DNA of 64,000 nucleotides, from contig CP084167.1 in assembly GCA_021513715.1 (NCBI GenBank), positions 2,144,001-2,208,000 on the forward strand. The letters are read 5' to 3'. The DNA is from Candidatus Heimdallarchaeum endolithica. GTDB taxonomy: Archaea > Asgardarchaeota > Heimdallarchaeia > Heimdallarchaeales > Heimdallarchaeaceae. The notes beneath the pieces were generated by a model. It did not search any database, was not told where the DNA came from, and saw only the letters and a list, made by a program, of their open reading frames with translations. Of the stretch, positions 50,894 to 56,551 are shown one piece after another (the first letter of the stretch is position 1; the number at the start of each line of letters is the position of its first letter). A program made the position numbers and the translations under genes.

Positions 50894-52444
50894 CTAATTA
50901 ATATTTTTGAAATCGATAGCTGTTCTTTGTAAATTCTTCAAATTTATAATATAGGTTTCACCAGGATTAGGATTAATATTCATGCTTTTTTGATATTCTG
51001 TTTGAGATTGAAATGTTCCAGAACTGATTAGTGTCACATTCCTGTAAGTTGAATCTTCACACAAGTGTGTGTGTCCAACATGAAAAATATCTGGAATTCG
51101 ATTGATGACAAGCTGATCAATATAATCAGGCATAATAGGTGTTCTTTGTCCATAAATAGGTACTAAGTGTCTATTTCTCAGCATTTCAACCATAGCAGGT
51201 ACTGCAGATTCATGGGGGATATCCCTAATTGCAGCATTAATGTCTATTATTGAATTACCATGGGACATCAAAACCTCTACATTATGAGCTTTAATATATG
51301 CGGGACTACCCAATAAATGGATATTATCTATTTCATACAGCTCTTCTGCAAATTCTTTTCTAATAGGTGATTGAGGTTCTGCAGCTCTCGCTGCGTCATG
51401 ATTTCCAGGTATAATAATTATCTCAATATCTGAATTGATCTTTTCAAAATACTCTGAAGCTTGCAAATATTGAACTTTAATGTTTTTTAACACAAGATCT
51501 GCATCTTGATTAGGATAAACTCCTACTCCGTCGACTATATCTCCTGCTACAAAAAGATATTTTATTTGTTCTCCTATTTTATTAAATTTTGAGGAATTCA
51601 AGTCAGCGTTGAGAAATTTTATGCTCTTCATAAATACATTTCTGAGAAAATGTCTTGAGCCTATGTGCATGTCAGAAATGAACAGGGCGAAGACATCTTG
51701 CTCTGAATAATGCACTGGTTTATTATATGGAATATCAGGCCAGAAAATATCAGAAATATAGAGTAATCCTCTTCTCCATTGACCTGTGAAACAAAGAATA
51801 GAATCTTCAAGAACATGAATAGCTTTTTGAATTATCGCTTGAGGTTTTTTTACTAGTATTGCTTCTATTTTTCCTTCCAAATCCTCTAATTCAAAAGAAA
51901 AAATACCATTACTCCTTTCATTTTTTGCAAAAACAGAGGCAATAACTGAAACTTGATCACGTGAATCAATTGATTTTAGATATCTTGTGTTAACAATATT
52001 CTTTATATCACGTCTTCCCTCAAATATTTTTGATATCTGTTTAAATCGACTAACAAAATATTCGTGAAATTTATCAACAGAGATTCTATCTATTTCCATT
52101 GAAGGAGTGTTAATAATTTCTAATTCTGTGTCAATTTTATTTTTCCTTTCTCTTGGTATTGCTGAAGGTGGTCTTTTTTGAACAATTTTTTTCTCAACAA
52201 CCTTTTTTTCAATAACTCCTGCTTGTTTTTTTTCCTTTATATCACCTAATCCAGCTTTTGAAATATCTGTTTTAATGATTTTTTTTATTGTATCTAGATC
52301 TAAAATAATTTCTTCTGGTTTAACTTTTAAAATCTTATCTATAATCTCATCTCTATCCGTCTCTTGCATCAAAAACGAAAATGTTTCTGGCGTAAGTTGA
52401 TAACCGCTACTCATAAGTTCTTTAAGCTTCTCGGGAATTACCAT
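50894..52444 (-). CDS. polB: DNA polymerase D small subunit DP1
   Basis: ISDMHIGS, GDIVDG, PGNHD, HG, GHTH phosphoesterase motifs; OB fold with LEDLEG. Confidence 0.96.
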   Translation of the reverse strand: MVIPEKLKELMSSGYQLTPETFSFLMQETDRDEIIDKILKVKPEEIILDLDTIKKIIKTDISKAGLGDIKEKKQAGVIEKKVVEKKIVQKRPPSAIPRERKNKIDTELEIINTPSMEIDRISVDKFHEYFVSRFKQISKIFEGRRDIKNIVNTRYLKSIDSRDQVSVIASVFAKNERSNGIFSFELEDLEGKIEAILVKKPQAIIQKAIHVLEDSILCFTGQWRRGLLYISDIFWPDIPYNKPVHYSEQDVFALFISDMHIGSRHFLRNVFMKSIKFLNADLNSSKFNKIGEQIKYLFVAGDIVDGVGVYPNQDADLVLKNIKVQYLQASEYFEKINSDIEIIIIPGNHDAARAAEPQSPIRKEFAEELYEIDNIHLLGSPAYIKAHNVEVLMSHGNSIIDINAAIRDIPHESAVPAMVEMLRNRHLVPIYGQRTPIMPDYIDQLVINRIPDIFHVGHTHLCEDSTYRNVTLISSGTFQSQTEYQKSMNINPNPGETYIINLKNLQRTAIDFKNIN

Positions 52445-52936: not shown

Positions 52937-54601
52937 TTGCATGTAATGAAAAAAATTGTTAATAAAAATGCAAATTCAGATATCTTGAATCTTTTGCGTT
53001 GTTCTACTACTACAGAATTATTACATCTCCTTAAAAAGCAACAAGAACTGGATTTAGAAAAAAATAACTTAAAGAAAATAAGCAAATTAAAAGTAGATTC
53101 AATTACTAGAACGGAGTTAGAATCTCTTAAATTAGTCTTTATGATTTTTATAAATAAAACAATAAAAGAAATAGAAAACTCAATTTATAATAAAGTAGGA
53201 AAAAAGGAATTTGAAAAGAAGTACAAGCACTTTTTTAGAACAATTAATGAGATTGAAATAGAAGCTTTTGTTAGAATCATCTTATTTTTAGTAGGAATAA
53301 AAGAGGAAGTAGTTTTTGTTAATGATCCACGAGCATATGTTGAGAGATTTCATATAATTTATCTTCTGAGCACATTAACGGTAGGTTATATCGATGAATT
53401 AGTGGGAACAGCAGAAGAGACTCTATGTTTTGGTAAATTTGGAAAGAGGAAAAATAACGGATTTGATCAGTTACTCCTAGGGAGGGACACTTCAGGGAAA
53501 TATATAATTAAAACAATAAACTTGAAGTTTAACGGTTCAAATAACGTATATTTAAAACGTAAATCTAAACTTTTTGAAAAAATAAACACTGAAATAGATA
53601 GCCTAGATAAGGAGGTGAAGGGGAAGAAAGAAATAATAAGGATGTTATTAAGAAAAAGAAGAAGTTCTCTACACGATATTGGCTTAGATTTCCTAAGAAA
53701 AGAAAAAAACGGAGATCTAAAAGAAGCGCTAATAAAAAGTGGTTTAGATCTTGATACAATAAATCTTATCTTAAATGCAGCAATAAAACAACATCAACTT
53801 ATTTCTTTACTTGAAAATGGTTGGACATTTGAAGCAACAAAAAACCTTCAAGGATATTTAGTAGTTACAAACGATATAGTCAATTATATAGATCTAGTGA
53901 GTGAGAACAAATCTATAGTGAGAATTGAAGCAACTGATCTTCAACCAAGAATTAACCTTGATTTTATCGAGATTCCATCATTTGAAGAAAAAAATGAAAA
54001 TAAAAATATTTTCAAAAAAATAGATAATCTTCTTCTCACGAGACTGAAAAAGAGAAAATTTGTTTATAACCTAGAAAATAAATATAGTTTTATAGAGACA
54101 ATCATCAAGATTCAGGATGTTCTTTATAATATTATTACAAAAGAGGGGCTATTCAAGGATTTTGAAGTTTTAAGCAGCTATGAAACAAAACACCGTTTAG
54201 AATTTATTGGGTGCAAAGATGAGCTGTTTTACTATTACTCTTATTTAGAAAAATGGGCTTCTAGATATGCAATTAGAACTTACGACGAAATAGTTCTTAA
54301 TTTAATGCCAACAAATGAACGTTTCTCTTTAATAACAAAAATTTCTGAAAGTAAAAATATTGAAACAATTAACAATATTAAAAGTTTTACAGAGCAAATA
54401 TTCAAAGAAATAATAAAGAAAATAGAAAATGTGGATTTTACAAACCTTTCTTTAGAAGAAATAGAAAATATATTAGCCAATAATTCTTCAATAGCGAAAA
54501 AAGTTACAGAATTTTTCAAATTTAAAGAAGGAACTATAGATGGCAATTGGATAGGACATAAGATAACCGAAAAAAGAAACATGATTCTATTTTTTACGTA
54601 A
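52937..54601 (+). CDS. Hypothetical protein ending exactly at the IS left junction (possibly truncated)
   Basis: 554 aa; weak PD-(D/E)xK-like GFDQ...INLK; the stop codon overlaps the TTTACGTA junction. Confidence 0.6.
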   Translation: MHVMKKIVNKNANSDILNLLRCSTTTELLHLLKKQQELDLEKNNLKKISKLKVDSITRTELESLKLVFMIFINKTIKEIENSIYNKVGKKEFEKKYKHFFRTINEIEIEAFVRIILFLVGIKEEVVFVNDPRAYVERFHIIYLLSTLTVGYIDELVGTAEETLCFGKFGKRKNNGFDQLLLGRDTSGKYIIKTINLKFNGSNNVYLKRKSKLFEKINTEIDSLDKEVKGKKEIIRMLLRKRRSSLHDIGLDFLRKEKNGDLKEALIKSGLDLDTINLILNAAIKQHQLISLLENGWTFEATKNLQGYLVVTNDIVNYIDLVSENKSIVRIEATDLQPRINLDFIEIPSFEEKNENKNIFKKIDNLLLTRLKKRKFVYNLENKYSFIETIIKIQDVLYNIITKEGLFKDFEVLSSYETKHRLEFIGCKDELFYYYSYLEKWASRYAIRTYDEIVLNLMPTNERFSLITKISESKNIETINNIKSFTEQIFKEIIKKIENVDFTNLSLEEIENILANNSSIAKKVTEFFKFKEGTIDGNWIGHKITEKRNMILFFT

Positions 54602-54748
54602 TTTACAGTTGTTGAGGAAAAAGGAGAGAAAAAAGAGGAGAAAGGAGAGAGAGGAAGGAGAGGGGTTTTTATAGGGAAAAAAAGTAAAAGTAAGTAAGAA
54701 GAGAAGAAGAAAAAATAAACAGAAAAAGAAAAGAAGGAAGGAAAAAGA

Positions 54749-56200
54749 ATGGTGGAAGACGTCGTCAAAACCTTGAAAGTGAGAATAAAGAATGAGGTAT
54801 TGACGACGAGGAAGAAGGAAAGGTTATGGAGAATAACGGGGAGAGATACAAGGATAATAGAGAAGTATGTGAGAATTATTCACCACAACAGAAGAAAAAT
54901 ATGTACTAAAACTAAAAATGGGAAAATAAGAGTGCATAGAGGAAAATTAGATGAACTGACACTAACTACTTCAAAAGTTAAAGAAGAAGAGAGAAGAAAG
55001 ACTGTTCCTCACGATCTGAAGAGAATGTTCCCTTATTGTTCTCACAATGAGTTTCAAGAGTGTAGAGATATAGCCGTACAATTATATGAACAAGGGTATA
55101 GACCCAGTCCTACTCGTCCTCCAATAAAGAGAGCAAGAAGGCAACTAATTAATGGAAAAAGGTTCATCCTTATCCATCTGCCAAAAGAGAAGAATAACAC
55201 TCTCACTCGTTGGTGGGTGGGGATAAGAGACTCGTTAGATACGTGGAGAAGAAACACCCCCTATCATCAGAAACTATGGTTACCTTTAGAGATGAGCACT
55301 TTCCACCAGAAAGAGTTAAAGAAAGGGAGGGTGAAAAGTTTAGAACTAAGATATAAACGTTCTACACATGAATGGTGGGTGTATTTCCAACTAAGAGTAC
55401 TTCCTCCTTCTTTTTATCCTACTAAAGAAGATAATTCTTCTTCTCTTCCTTCAGCTGTGCTGGGAATAGATCTAGGGATAAACATTCCTGCTGCAGGAGT
55501 GTTACTGACCCCTAAAAAGAAGTTAACAAAAAAAGAGATAAAGTTCTGGTATAACAAACAGTGGAATAGAATCAATCATCGATATAAACTCAAACTTTCC
55601 CGTCTTCAGAGGAAAGCGGCTTTAAATGACCAGTCGGGTAAAAAACACCAGATTTACCGTTTTCTCGCTCTTCTTCGTCGGAGATATAAAAACGTTAAAC
55701 GGGCATATATTTACCAATTTATAAGCGACGTTGTGCAGACGATAGAAACTTATGCTCGAATGTATGACCTTTTCGTCGTCGTAGGTTACCCTAAACACAT
55801 TCGAGAGGAGAAAGGAAAAGGTAAAAGTACTCGTAATTTTCGTAGAAAACTTCACCAGTGGAATTTTTCTCTTGTTCTTACTCTTCTTCGTCGGGCATTG
55901 ATACTTCGAGGTTTTGACCCTCACCGGATATTGACGATAGAAGAAAGAGGAACATCCTCTCATTGTTCTCGTTGTGGAAGGAAAGTTATCCGTCCTGTTA
56001 GAGGTTTAGTCCATTGCTCCTCTTGCGGTTATACTTTCCACTCTGATCTCACAGGGGCAATGAACATCGCACGAAAGTTCCTTGGTGTTCTTTTCCGTCC
56101 TCAAGGAAACACTATCACTGATTACCTCACTGGTCAACGATTCAGTTCTACTCATTTCATTGTTTGCCTAGGGCTCAGCCATTGGTTGCAGCCCCAGTAG
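54749..56200 (+). CDS. tnpB: RNA-guided endonuclease TnpB with rearranged RuvC-II
   Basis: RuvC-I LGIDLG; VVVGYP at the usual Glu position; EERGTS; CSRC...CSSC Zn finger; RuvC-III HSDLTGAMNIA. Confidence 0.92.
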   Translation: MVEDVVKTLKVRIKNEVLTTRKKERLWRITGRDTRIIEKYVRIIHHNRRKICTKTKNGKIRVHRGKLDELTLTTSKVKEEERRKTVPHDLKRMFPYCSHNEFQECRDIAVQLYEQGYRPSPTRPPIKRARRQLINGKRFILIHLPKEKNNTLTRWWVGIRDSLDTWRRNTPYHQKLWLPLEMSTFHQKELKKGRVKSLELRYKRSTHEWWVYFQLRVLPPSFYPTKEDNSSSLPSAVLGIDLGINIPAAGVLLTPKKKLTKKEIKFWYNKQWNRINHRYKLKLSRLQRKAALNDQSGKKHQIYRFLALLRRRYKNVKRAYIYQFISDVVQTIETYARMYDLFVVVGYPKHIREEKGKGKSTRNFRRKLHQWNFSLVLTLLRRALILRGFDPHRILTIEERGTSSHCSRCGRKVIRPVRGLVHCSSCGYTFHSDLTGAMNIARKFLGVLFRPQGNTITDYLTGQRFSSTHFIVCLGLSHWLQPQ

Positions 56201-56425
56201 ACAAAAAAAGAAGATAATTCTATTCTCTTTTAGAGTTAATTCTTTCTTTTTTGTCTCTCGTGGAGTGAAGAAAAGAACTTACAACTCTTTTCTTCTTTAT
56301 GATTCCCACGTTTCGTGTATGATGTCTGTTTCAACTCCTTTATAGTATTGTATGGCTTGGTTGATTTCAAGAGATTAAACTCCTTCAGTTTTTTCTCTTA
56401 CAAGACAGAGTGCGAAAAACTTTAC
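56199..56425 (+). ncRNA. Candidate omega-RNA (reRNA) scaffold / IS right end
   Basis: Stem 56199-56214/56241-56256; stem GAAGAAAAGA 56267-56276/TCTTTTCTTC 56286-56295 closed by CGTGG/CCACG; located between the tnpB stop and the element end. Confidence 0.55.
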
Positions 56426-56551
56426 GTAGAAAAGTAAATCATATCAAAAGACACGTTTGTTATACTAGAAAACGAAAGGGGTGATCTTTTAAGAGTAAGC
56501 GAGAACAGAAAAAGCCCACTGATAACTTGCAAATTCAATTTTTTAAATGAA

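Follow-up and report, generated by a model that had tools for sequence, protein, structure and literature searches.

A small multicopy Asgard transposon with a RuvC-II-rearranged TnpB, probably a non-autonomous member of the aCas1-TnpB family

The 1.86-kb element that carries the gene for a 483-aa TnpB in Ca. Heimdallarchaeum endolithica probably belongs to the Asgard aCas1-TnpB transposon family as a non-autonomous member, with the inverted ends, the promoter, tnpB and the omegaRNA kept and the Cas1-like integrase gone. As far as can be judged from sequence, the protein is probably an active TnpB2-type RNA-guided homing nuclease residing on a small multicopy transposon. The genome is a single 3,326,783-bp contig with tRNA-Gly(CCC) at its end. 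The window is the whole stretch of DNA that was analysed, 64,000 nucleotides long, and its features are listed below; fractions refer to the 73 rows of a homolog alignment (A1).

52937..54580, +, interrupted host gene, 5' part, without Pfam match
54576..54582, +, left flank and core, the predicted TAM side (VCAT; ACAT in this copy)
54580..56443, +, whole non-autonomous element, 1.86 kb, including the CATG/CATA 4-mer at each junction
54581..56442, +, element proper, ATG...CAT
54581..54601, +, left terminal inverted repeat arm (AT core 54581-54582)
54666..54673, +, probable archaeal TATA box, preceded by purine-rich sequence, suggested by a shared upstream motif
54749..56200, +, tnpB, 483 aa, RuvC-II rearranged (Gly346/Glu399)
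55469..55471, +, RuvC-I Asp241, in DLG, not DPG (73/73)
55784..55786, +, Gly346 at the canonical RuvC-II Glu position, in VVVGYP (73/73)
55943..55945, +, alternative catalytic Glu399, in EERGTS (73/73)
55964..56026, +, C4 zinc finger (C406, C409, C423, C426)
56045..56047, +, RuvC-III Asp433 (73/73)
56198..56442, +, predicted omegaRNA scaffold, 245 nt, beginning at the stop codon and including the right end
56422..56442, +, right terminal inverted repeat arm (AT core 56441-56442)
56443..56462, +, predicted guide, the host flank reached by read-through of the right end, by analogy with known TnpB architecture
56443..57238, +, interrupted host gene, 3' part

The residues D241, G346, E399 and D433 are invariant among the aligned homologs. 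This is in agreement with the original prediction, in which the Asp of both RuvC-I and RuvC-III was said to be intact, and a Gly at the RuvC-II Glu position was said to be followed by a Glu about 53 residues later. E399 is situated 53 residues past G346, and six residues separate it from the zinc-finger residue C406. The adjacent E398 is not conserved, which identifies E399 as the alternative Glu. In a joint alignment, ordinary TnpBs have their canonical Glu, and Fanzor2 its Pro, in the column of G346, and E399 shares a column with the alternative Glu of Fanzor2. With Gly at the Glu position, Glu before the zinc finger and both Asp residues present, the protein is of the RuvC-II-rearranged (TnpB2/RIIr) type. 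It has a zinc-finger domain of the TnpB/Cas12f type and scores 84.6 bits against NF040570, under the cut-off of 100. Its close homologs are almost all Heimdall- and Thorarchaeota records, confirming the Asgard origin that had been proposed, and none was found in viral contigs in a viral scan.

The AlphaFold2 model (pLDDT 87) has the TnpB/Cas12f fold. D241 and G346 are located near the ends of strands 235-242 and 340-347, respectively, E399 directly follows strand 394-398, and D433 starts helix 432-449. Judged by these secondary-structure positions, the modelled topology of the triad fits the expected RuvC strands and helix.

Homology between the copies of the element ends exactly at 54580 and 56443. 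The inverted ends are 21 nt long, the left arm being 81% complementary to the right, and the left arm lies at the same place in all copies. A description of the element as having an 8-bp direct repeat and no terminal inverted repeats was rejected, as this repeat is the palindromic core of the inverted arms and lies about 13 nt inward from the true ends. There is no second gene within the 1.86 kb. A T-run/ATA motif upstream of tnpB is common to the 483-aa family, the L011 clade and a 445-aa TnpB family; a sigma-70 promoter scan was uninformative because the host is an archaeon.

The H. endolithica genome contains 12 near-full copies with 79-97% nucleotide identity, eight of which have ORFs of at least 480 aa, and it further holds two copies of a 504-aa sister as well as fragments. 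The flanks are different in every copy. The sites occupied by the copies are C-AT-G-like, both junctions have AT, and the target is restored when the element is taken out so that one 4-mer is left. In the window, such removal restores an 813-codon frame of the host gene. In H. aukensis, which carries 11 near-full copies of the element, this site is empty and the ortholog is an intact 800-aa ORF. Leaving one 4-mer gives the longest frame in six copies, the one at 54580-56443 included. The outer bases of the 4-mer come from the target, and the AT is nearly constant in both empty and filled sites. On sequence grounds, a 2-bp duplication, a 2-bp crossover core and a blunt insertion between A and T would all fit the junctions.

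The interrupted host gene adjoins a gene that, from the look of its sequence, encodes a putative DNA polymerase D small subunit (50894-52444). Its 3' part contains a 15-bp tandem repeat (RKENA peptide repeat, window 56928-56990), and it is followed on the minus strand by a tRNA whose anticodon loop is enlarged, probably a tRNA-Arg(TCT) with an intron (window 57239-57334).

The same inverted ends are found on a 380-bp MITE, which has an omegaRNA-like segment, and on the unrelated 445-aa TnpB. The MITE is located at 699140-699522 and about 14 more sites of the H. endolithica genome, with copies up to 99.7% identical, and the nearest counterpart of its omegaRNA-like segment is in the L011 clade. 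Repeats of a similar kind, without genes, are present in the genome G032. At 1123642-1129485 of H. endolithica, two MITEs in inverted orientation flank a block of 5.8 kb that contains an ATPase-like gene of 561 aa, possibly a composite transposon. The 445-aa TnpB, which has the canonical Glu, occurs in seven Heimdallarchaeaceae genomes and in H. endolithica is located at 3216735-3218224, 2688067-2689558 and 2833124 onward (L007, L009, L268-L284).

The segment downstream of tnpB folds with z=-3.6. An alignment of 15 copies has 50 pairs, in which 98% of the cells are paired and four pairs are changed on both sides, these four mostly mirroring one subfamily split. An Rfam search of the segment gave no omegaRNA family. 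The predicted guide at 56443-56462 has no perfect second site in the genome.

The flanks of the copies are biased. A T before CAT occurs in 0/21 left flanks versus 8/22 right flanks (Fisher p=0.004), and its absence on the left also departs from the genome background of 35% (binomial p=1e-4). The 445-aa TnpB has a T before CAT at the left in 16/16 loci, which include at least one pair representing the same site in two species, and the right end of this family is GAT, not CAT. Since two families with the same ends show opposite biases, the bias goes with the nuclease and not with the ends. It is as would be expected if TnpB retains elements at sites that it can cut, and it suggests a VCAT TAM and an active nuclease. 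The element's own right end has a T (TCAT), so that a filled site would not be cut if the TAM is VCAT. In H. aukensis, the empty site is T-AT-A and would be without the predicted TAM. The catalytic triad is kept in all 14 copies, and dN/dS is 0.12-0.20, indicating purifying selection. The invariant triad, the dN/dS values, the folded RNA and the flank bias thus lend support to the proposal that the protein is probably an active rearranged RNA-guided nuclease.

It is most improbable that the nuclease is decaying or is catalytically dead, acting as an RNA-guided DNA binder only. The canonical Glu has been lost, and four of the 12 copies are frameshifted. However, the D-E-D triad is invariant across homologs that span 32-90% identity, the genes are under purifying selection, and the same catalytic arrangement has been tested and found active in ApmFz2 and in T. 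volcanium TnpB2 (TvTnpB), which carries the Gly and the alternative Glu (PMC10530073). This arrangement is a known and widespread prokaryotic state with a major clade, RIIr-5 (PMC10691335). The rearrangement, then, is already known, archaea included, and alone has no bearing on the origin of Fanzors. The original prediction was right that the arrangement occurs in active prokaryotic TnpBs, but a link to Fanzors is not supported: the fingerprint of Fanzors and pro-Fanzors is DPG plus the alternative Glu, and Fanzors are derived from cyanobacterial IS607 TnpBs (PMC10711439). There is equally little chance that the 483-aa family is sister or ancestral to the eukaryotic Fanzors, which would have entered eukaryotes via an Asgard host. 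The alternative Glu is common to both, and an inverted-repeat element with a CAT-containing TAM recalls Fanzor1 (TAM CATA, PMC11832414). On the other hand, RuvC-I in the 483-aa family is DLG (Leu in 70/73, Pro in 0/73), RuvC-II has Gly, not Pro, and RuvC-III has NAD/HSD, not DRD. The family profile matches Cas12f-type proteins with E about 1e-20 and Fanzor2 with 1.8e-10. In the fold comparison, AsCas12f has a Z-score of 19.8 (rmsd 5.4, 369 residues aligned) and Fanzor2 one of 15.4 (rmsd 5.2, 360 aligned); no Fanzor1 structure appeared among the fold and profile matches, which does not by itself exclude a relationship.

The phylogeny that had been called for was calculated without Fanzor1, on 63 rows and 228 columns after 19 redundant or badly trimmed rows had been left out. 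Its Fanzor2-like set was defined by DPG plus the alternative Glu, starting from giant-virus seeds. The ML tree places Fanzor2 and the cyanobacterial pro-Fanzor with DRDxN TnpBs (95/88), across a 98/90 branch from the 483-aa family, which is found among NADxN-type and archaeal Gly/Glu TnpBs. AU tests reject neither a grouping of the Asgard family with Fanzor2 (p=0.27) nor the possibility that all proteins with the alternative Glu have one origin (p=0.24), and a short alignment such as this one therefore cannot settle deep ancestry. The close homologs are almost all from Asgard archaea, whereas the host context of Fanzors is a eukaryote or giant virus, or a cyanobacterial IS607. The relatives of the 483-aa TnpB travel with a Cas1-like integrase, so the family is most likely no ancestor of the eukaryotic Fanzors. 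By the defining sequence features tested, the 483-aa TnpB is not a Fanzor, and its Gly/alternative-Glu site is of the archaeal TnpB2/RIIr type, without a special Fanzor tie. The original prediction thus described the sequence features correctly; the relevance to Fanzor origins that it drew from them is not supported, and it had overlooked the ends of the element, its copy number and the aCas1 link.

This link is provided by 29 related loci of Thorarchaeota and of archaea without classification, in which the TnpB and a gene about 1,700 aa long (aCas1) are divergently oriented. In the N-terminal domain of this partner, E73, H185, D192 and D195 are invariant. Pfam and Atlas searches with the partner gave no match, and the Cas1 matches obtained with Foldseek were weak (best E=0.08). 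In a wide fold search with the N-terminal domain, the top 12 of 48,161 chains were Cas1 or casposase, with Z-scores of 9.2-13.3, the next being 5.6. The aCas1 proteins are 1,500-1,900 aa long, and their Cas1 domain is followed by a PD-(D/E)XK-like motif (e.g. L091:4695-9740). At one locus (L266), genes for a phospholipase-D-like nuclease and a helicase are found near aCas1.

Solo and aCas1-linked members (L215, Thorarchaeota) of the TnpB family form one clade in the ML tree (100/99). Co-divergence of TnpB and aCas1 was not significant (Mantel rho 0.14, p=0.10). One complete aCas1 element measures 11.2 kb between long inverted repeats, and its termini begin like those of the H. endolithica element. 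The aCas1-linked ends, some of which were chosen by motif at single-copy loci, read inward with the same (C/G)ATGA start. In G032, an aCas1-bearing genome of the same order, the repeats examined terminate in CAT or in a variant that differs by one base, and the next base is C or G; many of the Thorarchaeota right ends are looser, without a terminal CAT. Most Thorarchaeota relatives have a GTTCACTCA motif downstream of tnpB, which is the motif given for the aCas1-linked Cas1H-Asgard TnpBs in PMC10691335; it is not present in the element copy at 54580-56443. A sister TnpB clade (L018, L021, L030, L073) is often encoded immediately downstream of a protein of 900 aa that has a HerA/coupling-ATPase domain.

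Because aCas1 is absent from the element and was not found in the genome, the element is regarded as a non-autonomous derivative and not as a full Cas1H-Asgard member. In the H. endolithica genome, the Pfam Cas1 profile gave no matches other than canonical-length Cas1, and Thor-based and broadened aCas1 profiles gave nothing below E=0.09. aCas1 was found in none of 28-31 Heimdallarchaeaceae genomes, two of them closed, even when the profile was broadened; it is present in 44 of the 76 genomes of one family, probably Thorarchaeota, and in 3 of 11-12 genomes of one family of the same order. No autonomous element with these ends was detected in the H. endolithica genome by a PWM scan, in 31 genomes of the family by a pattern search, in metagenome and viral scans, or among the neighbours of the 445-aa family. 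Nevertheless, sister elements and MITEs each have copies that are 99% identical, showing that something moves them and has done so recently.

In Heimdallarchaeaceae, the same element and nuclease might be moved by a serine recombinase encoded on its own in the chromosome. Serine recombinases normally act through a 2-bp core, and the joined ends of the element form an imperfect palindrome around the 2-bp AT core, resembling a serine-recombinase crossover site. Two serine recombinase genes with an intact catalytic Ser motif are present in H. endolithica, and their family occurs in 18/18 Heimdallarchaeaceae versus 0/143 other Asgard genomes (E<1e-25), the mirror image of the distribution of aCas1. 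However, any family-specific core gene gives such a distribution, so that the recombinase is a lead only. In addition, its genes are never situated within an element, the same ends occur in the aCas1-bearing G032, where the recombinase was not found, and the proteins are without the N-terminal HTH of IS607 TnpA. Such a mobiliser is thus rather unlikely. A passing of mobility from the Cas1-like integrase to a host serine recombinase in Heimdallarchaeaceae, where two unrelated TnpBs with complementary TAMs (VCAT and TCAT) and guide-only MITEs would share ends and split the target space, must be considered a similarly doubtful extension. It is yet harder to believe that the gene is an ordinary IS1341-type (IS200/IS605) solo TnpB moved by a Y1 TnpA, or a passenger on the ends of a DDE transposase. 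The H. endolithica genome has one Y1 tnpA and abundant DDE transposases of several families, and DDE-linked TnpBs with inverted ends are reported in PMC10691335. However, the element is bounded by inverted repeats that have an AT in common, and not by asymmetric hairpins; no Y1 match was obtained in H. aukensis despite its 11 near-full copies; and none of the H. endolithica DDE elements has these ends, each making its own flanking duplications.

The two serine recombinase genes are located at 316731-317450 and about 405340-406090 of H. endolithica (L140, L144), and the proteins are up to 75-78% identical across Heimdallarchaeaceae genera. Downstream of the sole Y1 tnpA there is another Gly/alternative-Glu TnpB, separate from the 483-aa one (275-aa ORF; 923900-925480; L010, L156). 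In two related genomes (G002, G014; L212-L214), an IS607-type serine TnpA accompanies unusually long TnpBs, of about 650 aa, with a degenerate zinc finger.

For a non-autonomous aCas1-TnpB element that has lost its integrase, which is the preferred reading, the following cycle is proposed. A trans-acting enzyme would insert and excise the element by its inverted ends; by descent this would be aCas1, none of which is detectable in the genome. The transcript would read through the right end, the host flank serving as guide as in known TnpB biology. TnpB would then use D241-E399-D433 to cut element-free sites with a 5'-VCAT TAM, repair of which would restore the element, and the filled site would escape cutting through the TCAT of the right end.

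The aCas1-TnpB elements are a computationally predicted class, to which base-precise ends, empty sites, and a predicted guide boundary and TAM are now added. Such detail in a closed genome from an enrichment culture makes two points directly testable, namely the role of a Cas1-fold protein as transposase for these ends and the identity of the mobiliser where aCas1 is missing. The 483-aa protein is also a candidate nuclease with a predicted short, non-T TAM.

Among known systems, Cas1H-Asgard-1 and -2 (PMC10691335) resemble the H. endolithica element in that its TnpB belongs to the same clade as the aCas1-linked loci, and in the inverted ends and the terminal motif. The H. endolithica element differs in having no aCas1, in its size of 1.86 kb instead of about 11 kb, in its shorter protein and in being without GTTCACTCA. 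The main text of PMC10691335 gives no ends, core or TAM for Cas1H-Asgard. The inverted ends with a shared AT and a duplicated 4-mer set the element apart from IS200/IS605, and no DDE transposase with matching ends, as in the DDE-1 to -6 linked TnpB elements, was found. If the AT at both junctions is a crossover core, it would resemble the dinucleotide core of IS607, and the TAM would include the core; the IS607 core is GG, whereas that of the H. endolithica element would be AT, with symmetric ends. An IS607-type TnpA (MerR-HTH serine) is absent from the H. endolithica genome, its only serine recombinases being the two stand-alone ones described above.

The best profile and structure matches of the 483-aa TnpB are Cas12f proteins (AsCas12f1, OsCas12f). 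These have the canonical catalytic Glu and are associated with CRISPR arrays, whereas the 483-aa TnpB has a predicted guide at the transposon end, and no CRISPR repeat array is present in 54450-56600. Fanzor2 and pro-Fanzors (ApmFz2, PDB 9B0L; PMC10711439, PMC11832414) have the TnpB fold and a Glu six residues before the zinc finger, as does the 483-aa TnpB, but they are on a separate branch of the ML tree, and their DPG, RuvC-II Pro, DRD-type RuvC-III and IS607 TnpA are absent from the H. endolithica element. TvTnpB shares with the 483-aa TnpB the Gly at the canonical Glu position and the alternative Glu before the zinc finger. It belongs to an IS605 element with a Y1 TnpA and a TGAC TAM, whereas the H. 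endolithica element has inverted ends and a predicted VCAT TAM. A common origin with TvTnpB-like Gly/alternative-Glu TnpBs is not rejected by the AU test (p=0.42), and the motifs of a Saccharolobus plasmid TnpB (L232) are nearly the same as those of the 483-aa TnpB.
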